The position numbers and the translations under genes are program-made. A DNA stretch of 61,060 nucleotides, counting the filler, from Sluysia triapertura (taxonomy: Eukaryota): the NCBI GenBank assembly GCA_046118255.1. It is 4 parts of 4 records of this genome, joined end to end, with 100 filler letters (N's around TTAATTAATTAA, not from the genome) between each part and the next. Parts side by side here need not be neighbours in the genome. Positions count along the whole stretch, not along the records: positions 49,368 to 61,060 come from JBJNIA010179029.1; 3 more parts are not named here. One strand, given 5' to 3'. The notes under the pieces are model-generated. The model was not told where the DNA came from, searched no databases, and worked only from the letters and a program-made list of their open reading frames with translations. Shown here in pieces: positions 58,682 through 59,063 of this stretch. Each line of letters begins with the position of its first letter. Within the stretch, counting starts at the first letter, position 1.

Positions 58682-59063
58682 TTATATATCCAGTTTCGAA
58701 TGCATCCGACAATTGTTTGGTGATATGTTAAAAGGTTTTAGTATATTCGATATATCAATAATTGAAGAATGACTGTGATGTCCACAATACCAAATAACCA
58801 CGGATCTTTTGACTAAACATTCTCTAACTAATGTAACTAAATTTCCTTCTTGGTACACATTGAATATTTTCATATCTTTTATTGACTCTATTTGGTCTTG
58901 ATTCAGGACAATCTTCGGTGTCCAATAAAGAGAACTTTCTTCCAATCTGAGGTTGACTACAATCAAAAGCTTTTATAGCATGAGTTTTATTAATTCCAAA
59001 TAATGCTAATAAAACGATTATAAATAGCATATTATTTATGTTCCAAATTGTGGAATGATCCAT
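58682..59063 (-). pseudogene. Endogenous viral class III fusion glycoprotein N-terminus (chuvirus/gB-like), frameshifted and truncated
   Basis: Signal peptide MLFIIVLLALFGINKTHA, then AFDCS..FSLLDTEDCP..VYQ..VRECLVKRSVVIWYCGHHSHSS..FNISPNNCRMH. Confidence 0.75.

Follow-up and report, generated by a model that had tools for sequence, protein, structure and literature searches.

The window, a stretch of 61,060 nt of DNA with filler included, is eukaryotic and AT-rich, with a GC content of about 25%. By six-frame translation, the relic of a fusion glycoprotein (Env) was placed on its minus strand; the host gene SMC1 was located on the plus strand by tblastn. The relic feature extends from about 58634 to 59299, with some 670 nt surviving. 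It is thus larger than the range 58682-59063 assigned to it in the initial annotation, as it also takes in a third Env piece and an upstream remnant. The features recognized here are as follows.

56028-57642, plus strand: host SMC1, exons 1-8, about 450 aa (tblastn and spliced model)
58634-58706, minus strand: Env ectodomain piece 3 (15 bits gained on the initial reading; none of 1000 shuffles reached the score)
58707-58869, minus strand: Env ectodomain piece 2, YQE..ECLV..YCGHHSHSS..NNC (PF24664 E 4e-6; ends at frameshift 2)
58870-58976, minus strand: Env ectodomain piece 1, AFDC..FSLLDTEDC (PF24664 E 1e-5; ends at frameshift 1)
58977-59030, minus strand: hydrophobic signal sequence of Env, MLFIIVLLALF from 59030 (9-residue Kyte-Doolittle mean 3.2-3.7)
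59031-59140, minus strand: decayed linker joining the Bcl-2-like remnant to the signal sequence of Env; it contains stops and changes frame
59141-59299, minus strand: Bcl-2-like (BH1-BH2 region) remnant with GGW at its end (tblastn and profile match to the pre-Env region of relatives)

The fusion glycoprotein relic

The family PF24664 (Monjiviricetes_fusion) was matched in two of the ten frames tested. Piece 1 alone covered profile positions 5-68 and piece 2 alone positions 52-117, and the single-frame scores of these two halves, 24.2 and 25.5 bits, were slightly below the family cut-off of 27 bits (the Pfam gathering threshold). When the two frames were joined with an X at the first break, the score rose to 55.2 bits (E 4.3e-15, profile 5-117 of 653), and PF24664 was the sole Pfam match of the joined reading. 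Since both frames and the X-joined reading match the same family, the relic is real. The proposal that a class III, Monjiviricetes-type fusion glycoprotein lies here was therefore confirmed by the profile search, and a host secreted protein, the reading that had been set against it, was not what was found.

A profile built from the outside relatives described below gave the relic 140 bits, compared with -1.3 for the reversed sequence and 4.0 for the best of 1000 shuffles; this control lacks independence, since it was with the relic sequence that the relatives had been found. The first frameshift was located at about 58860-58875, in line with the single break predicted near 58860-58890, and a second one, which that prediction lacked, near 58706-58710. 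Beyond the second break the homology continued in another frame to about 58634. Bridging it raised the score from 140.1 to 155.5 bits, a value reached by none of 1000 shuffled tails. No Env homology was found past about 58634, the best value further downstream being E 1.6.

The motifs AFDC..SLLD..DC and YCGxHSHxS were both present as first described, in two frames of the minus strand. The C-x-MH ending given with them was not: as the second break precedes the point where homology resumes, MH is out-of-frame sequence. Five cysteines of the relic follow the spacing of three relatives, apart from one two-residue gap. A hydrophobic stretch was indeed present where a signal peptide had been called. 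It aligns with an internal hydrophobic stretch near residue 375 of P0004 and near residue 470 of the L001 ORF, so that in the source element the signal sequence was probably internal to a polyprotein.

The relic represents about a fifth of the profile (some 135 of about 650 positions) and carries two frameshifts; a complete ectodomain and a C-terminal transmembrane anchor are absent. It is dead and encodes nothing functional, and could serve at most as a putative source of small RNA. The stretch was present in one sequencing run (share 0.77), and no RNA run was among the holders listed.

Relatives of the relic

When the second frame was searched unaltered against 1.84 billion representative proteins, three matches were obtained at E<=0.001 (P0002, P0003 and P0004). 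A further relative, L001, was the sole locus confirmed among 14 pattern matches in metagenome contigs. The relic was 51% identical to L001 over 109 aa, 49% to P0002 over 98 aa and 45% to P0004 over 108 aa. Taken separately, piece 1 shared 61% identity with L001 over 33 aa and piece 2 shared 55% over 56 aa.

P0004 (HBK71150.1) is a single ORF of 2627 aa encoding a CCHC-type N-terminus (recognized by eye), PF24664, protease, RT, RNase H and integrase. It is filed as a protein of a Flavobacteriaceae MAG and is probably eukaryotic contamination from a flatworm contig. L001 carries a 5'-open ORF of 3426 aa with Env, three aspartyl-protease stretches, RT, RNase H and integrase. Env thus lies in frame between gag and pol in P0004, and before pol in L001, whose 5' end is cut off. 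P0002 is a partial protein of 748 aa with a weak Bcl-2 match directly ahead of PF24664, and P0003 is a 119-aa piece of Env.

Two side observations were made on L001. Its polyprotein (2-10282) carries extra hydrophobic segments, and a downstream ORF at 10617-12107 matches an RNase_T/DEDD exonuclease (E 1.4e-5), an accessory gene that section 7 of PMC6431247 does not name.

Other searches added no relative. None of 60 candidates passed in a word-indexed homolog search with the relic, and the same search with residues 1-420 of P0002 recovered only P0002 itself among 3961 candidates. A PDB sequence search with the relic gave nothing below E 0.76, and a protein atlas search with P0002 1-85 gave no usable match. 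Pattern scans yielded no locus in viral contigs, and none of 11 pattern matches in genome contigs was confirmed.

The Bcl-2-like remnant upstream of Env

The second component of the feature sits 110-270 nt upstream of the Env relic. When the pre-Env region of L001 was compared with the whole window by tblastn, its best match was 59296-59147 on the minus strand (E 0.007, 34% identity over 53 aa). A profile of L001 and P0002 matched the same place with 18.3 bits and an i-E of 0.002, against 0.34 for the next best place in the window, and none of 2000 shuffles reached that score. The distance from GGW to AFDC was 203 nt (about 68 codons) in the relic and 81 aa in both L001 and P0002. Homology of the remnant to the pre-Env domain of L001 and P0002 is thus well supported by sequence comparison. 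An extension of the remnant frame to about 59611, with four internal stops, was weak.

The Bcl-2 identity of this stretch comes from P0002; the label is weak by itself and has moderate support overall. Residues 9-70 of that protein gave a Pfam Bcl-2 match with E 0.00096 at 20.1 bits, below the cut-off of 31.4 bits. Residues 9-80 resembled the BH1-BH2 region of Bcl-xL (best E 0.0099), and all of the best 60 of 85 matches belonged to the Bcl-2 family. Neither the window remnant nor the L001 piece had a Pfam Bcl-2 match. For a model of the L001 pre-Env region (pLDDT 50), Foldseek ranked BOK and Bcl-xL first at E 0.24-0.7, which is not significant, and no Bcl-2 chain was among those listed by VIA-align.

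The pre-Env region of P0004 had also looked Bcl-2-like by eye. This candidate was dropped, as BLAST matched it to neither the L001 piece nor the window piece. The region shares another stretch with residues 1-110 of L001 (E 2e-4), which by eye is ubiquitin-like and has no Pfam match. A ubiquitin-like profile made from L001 and P0004 had no match in the window, where its best i-E was 3.8. In the 1.8 kb from the remnant to the window end, no Gag with CCHC and no Ubi/SUMO-like, BIR, ankyrin or MATH domain was detected; decay or deletion could conceal any that were once there.

The host gene and the placement of the host

The eight SMC1 exons are separated by very short introns, six of them of 30, 31, 33, 35, 39 and 54 nt and one uncertain. 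The spliced model found no further SMC1 exon up to 61060. As the gene model extends only to about residue 450 and no later exon follows, the relic would lie antisense in an intron opening near 57643, and it is probably located inside this long SMC1 intron.

Among the 120 SMC1 matches listed, the top 13 were from flatworms (164-208 bits) and the next scored 146 bits. One of the 13 was assigned by its gene-id prefix, which we take to denote Taenia. In a tree of 27 of the 120 matches listed, the window gene grouped with 11 flatworm sequences with 100/100 support, on a long branch (0.68) that drew a warning from the tool. The flatworm SMC1 sampled here comprised flukes and tapeworms, with no named free-living flatworm among the matches listed. 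Judged by its SMC1 sequence, the host is a flatworm.

Just upstream of SMC1, an intronless ORF of 447 aa was observed at 54190-55533 on the plus strand. It matched nothing in Pfam or the protein atlas, and neither the window nor L001 contains another copy.

Other remnants in the window

Debris of similar elements was found elsewhere in the window, together with remnants of other kinds:

14509-14646, plus strand: weaker Env crumb (Env profile i-E 0.004)
17030-17164, plus strand: short crumb from the middle of a similar Env (Env profile i-E 6e-5; tblastn E 0.005 with P0004; no Pfam match)
27668-28868, plus strand: remnant of a different retrotransposon, resembling gag and protease (DUF7041 E 1e-8; gag-asp_proteas E 0.006)
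36776-37323, minus strand: integrase-like remnant (E 0.001-0.003 against L001 and P0004)
39130-40980, minus strand: a second relic, likewise decayed and from the same type of element, with Env C-terminus, protease, RNase H and integrase (profiles and Pfam)

In the second relic the profiles gave i-E values of 7e-6 for the Env end, 7e-24 for RNase H and 4e-13 for the integrase, and Pfam RT_RNaseH was matched with E 2e-23. The RT has been deleted: the gap between protease and RNase H is 141 nt, compared with about 1380 nt expected.

A frame at 115-471 on the plus strand contains a GDTDS stretch and has no Pfam support. By eye, it presumably resembles a Maverick-type protein-primed DNA polymerase.

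Origin of the relic

No gag, pol or LTR was found next to the relic by profile, tblastn and repeat searches; LTR-like repeats in particular were absent near this fragment, which lies close to the window end. The parent element is therefore deduced from the relatives. On the strength of the sequence matches, the source is a retrotransposon, specifically a flatworm Ty3/gypsy element in which Env precedes pol, and membership of the Burro type is supported by the Bcl-2-like/Env layout, by the relatives and by the host phylum. Very probably, what survives is an internal, no longer functional part of a Burro/GYPSM1-like Ty3/gypsy LTR retrotransposon (of the "errantivirus" kind, with gB-type Env) in the genome of a flatworm, and it probably lies within the SMC1 intron.

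The intact ancestor would have encoded one long polyprotein in the order Gag-(accessory domains)-Bcl-2-like-Env-PR-RT-RH-IN. Its internal signal sequence would thread Env into the ER lumen, and the C-terminal transmembrane helix of Env would bring the chain back, so that the pol enzymes end up in the cytosol. Once processed, Env would form trimers and mediate membrane fusion of the class III type, allowing spread from cell to cell or from soma to germline, while the Bcl-2-like domain, anchored in the membrane by the signal helix, would restrain apoptosis in the producer cell. The scheme draws on L001 and P0004 and on what is established for signal-anchored polyproteins and for class III fusogens.

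The fold of Env was also examined with a structure model of L001 Env. The model was poor (pLDDT 34.5), and each of the 37 PDB rows listed for it belonged to a class III fusogen (TM about 0.1, best E 5.6e-4). In BFVD it had 17 matches at E<=0.001, with chuvirus-type G first (best E 2e-9) and herpesvirus gB next. VIA-align with the same model gave no Z above 5.0. Identity to chuvirus-type glycoproteins was 11-22%, a structure-based figure that comes from the poor model and refers to L001, not to the relic. Set against the 45-51% between the relic and its retroelement relatives, this makes chuvirus G a distant cousin and the retroelement Env a close one.

These values bear on another explanation, in which the glycoprotein mRNA of a jingchuvirus or other Monjiviricetes member was inserted directly by host retroelement machinery. 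It would agree with the PF24664 membership and with the leading place of chuvirus-type glycoproteins among the viral matches of the L001 model. Such insertions are common in arthropods (PMC10084718, PMC7642597), and Table 1 of PMC10084718 contains one flatworm-host chuvirus genome. However, the nearest relatives are retroelement Env proteins, none of the three matches among the 1.84 billion representatives was a viral G, and the remnant upstream matches the pre-Env region of retroelements. Moreover, no viral N or L family was matched in the upstream frames tested, although solo G insertions are the norm, and no stop-free frame longer than 98 aa was present within 57650-61060. Direct insertion from a chuvirus is largely refuted by these results and is very unlikely. 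Of the origins first considered (chuvirus, retrotransposon or Maverick), retrotransposon capture is the one that stands.

Could the relic be a domesticated host gene that is still useful, either spliced or as a secreted Env fragment blocking a receptor? The signal sequence and the cysteines are well preserved, and an antiviral role has been proposed for solo glycoproteins in mosquitoes (PMC7642597). However, two frameshifts fall within 330 nt, the linker and the Bcl-2-like frame contain stops, the sequence is truncated before the fusion machinery is complete, and the window holds similar debris elsewhere. We therefore regard domestication, too, as highly improbable.

Bcl-2 is often carried by DNA viruses, and the frame at 115-471 recalls a protein-primed polymerase by eye. 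Least probable of all, and scarcely credible, is nevertheless a fragment of a Maverick/Polinton or other DNA virus with an MFUS-1-like, gB-like fusogen, as known from nematode Mavericks (bioRxiv 2022.07.12.499685), and a viral Bcl-2, since that frame has no Pfam match and lies 58 kb from the relic, both long relatives (L001 and P0004) are retroelement polyproteins, the host is a flatworm and not a nematode, and no pPolB, ATPase, capsid or integrase gene adjoins the relic among the frames scanned.

Comparison with known elements

Burro/GYPSM1 elements of planarians are described as having one ORF with Gag, accessory domains, a Ubi/SUMO-like domain, a BCL2-like domain, Env and PR-RT-RH-IN (PMC6431247). 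Their Env matches mononegavirus fusion glycoproteins and lies in frame between gag and pol, and decaying Burro fragments with stops and frameshifts are reported from Dugesia japonica (PMC6431247). The feature in the window resembles Burro/GYPSM1 in the BCL2-like stretch directly before Env, in the Env placed ahead of PR-RT-RH-IN (seen in the relatives) and in the flatworm host. In contrast to Burro, a giant of 25-30 kb with LTRs, the relic is about 670 nt long, and neither gag nor an LTR was detected with it, nor any BIR, ankyrin, MATH or ubiquitin-like domain. Novelty of the combination of Bcl-2 and Env in a retrotransposon was considered and rejected, as the Burro layout has been published (PMC6431247).

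Nine flatworm elements of the gB-type GAG-ENV-POL kind, found in Macrostomum, Prostheceraeus and Schmidtea, are listed in PMC13524379. Its section 11 states that the entry mechanism of gB-type elements is unknown, and its main text has no match for "bcl". Across its seven supplements, CGHHSH occurs once, in Smed_errantivirus_6 of the C1a gB-type Env group. When the relic was compared by eye with Smed_errantivirus_1-6 (C1a HSV/gB-type), the pattern Y[HN]VYQE..EC..CG.[HS]S was present in all six rows. These elements are intact and some are multicopy (PMC13524379), whereas the relic is a dead fragment. Smed_errantivirus_1-6 are probably Burro elements, because their spans of 14.5-18 kb fit the 4,873-aa ORF of Burro.

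Jingchuvirales glycoprotein EVEs and Anakin share with the relic PF24664, probably the class III fold, and a CGxHSH-type motif (CGMHSH in BEL-71_CQ; PMC10084718, PMC7642597). They differ in their far more distant sequence and their arthropod or nematode hosts. Anakin, as described there, belongs to BEL/Pao, whereas the relatives of the relic have Ty3/gypsy-type pol domains downstream of Env. Nematode Maverick MFUS-1 (bioRxiv 2022.07.12.499685) is likewise a gB-like class III fusogen with a signal peptide in a mobile element; its carrier, however, is a DNA transposon-virus of nematodes, and no Maverick gene adjoins the relic.

The element type and its decayed fragments are thus already in print (PMC6431247, PMC13524379), and the relic is a further decayed copy. 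Through it, remains of Burro-like retrotransposons that carry Env are recorded in one more flatworm genome, and it links Burro with its BCL2-like domain (PMC6431247) to the gB-type GAG-ENV-POL errantiviruses (PMC13524379), probably as the same element type. It also means that calls of a "chuvirus-like glycoprotein" in flatworm genomes can be retroelement Env and not traces of RNA-virus infection.

The SMC1 introns of only 30-54 nt and the long branch outside the sampled flukes and tapeworms would be consistent with a host other than a dugesiid, for example a monogenean or another relative of parasitic flatworms. We consider such a host possible but rather doubtful. Burro-type elements would then be wider spread than published. 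If the host does lie outside the planarians, the known range of an element pairing a fusogen with an apoptosis regulator would be extended; titles and abstract openings of the papers listed on Burro or BCL2 in flatworm retroelements showed no Bcl-2-like plus class III Env layout outside planarians. In these elements, the signal helix of Env may at the same time hold an acquired anti-apoptotic Bcl-2 domain in the membrane, which would parallel a true enveloped virus.

Interspersed repeats

Two repeats were also observed in the window. A short GC-rich interspersed repeat is present in three copies (13639-13705, 29370-29416 and 49160-49226), each close to an N run; it carries a tRNA B-box-like GGTTCGA stretch and is possibly a SINE. 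An interspersed repeat with coding-like sequence is represented by three related pieces (7651-7841, 32030-32386 and 45040-45508) and is possibly the 3' end of a LINE.
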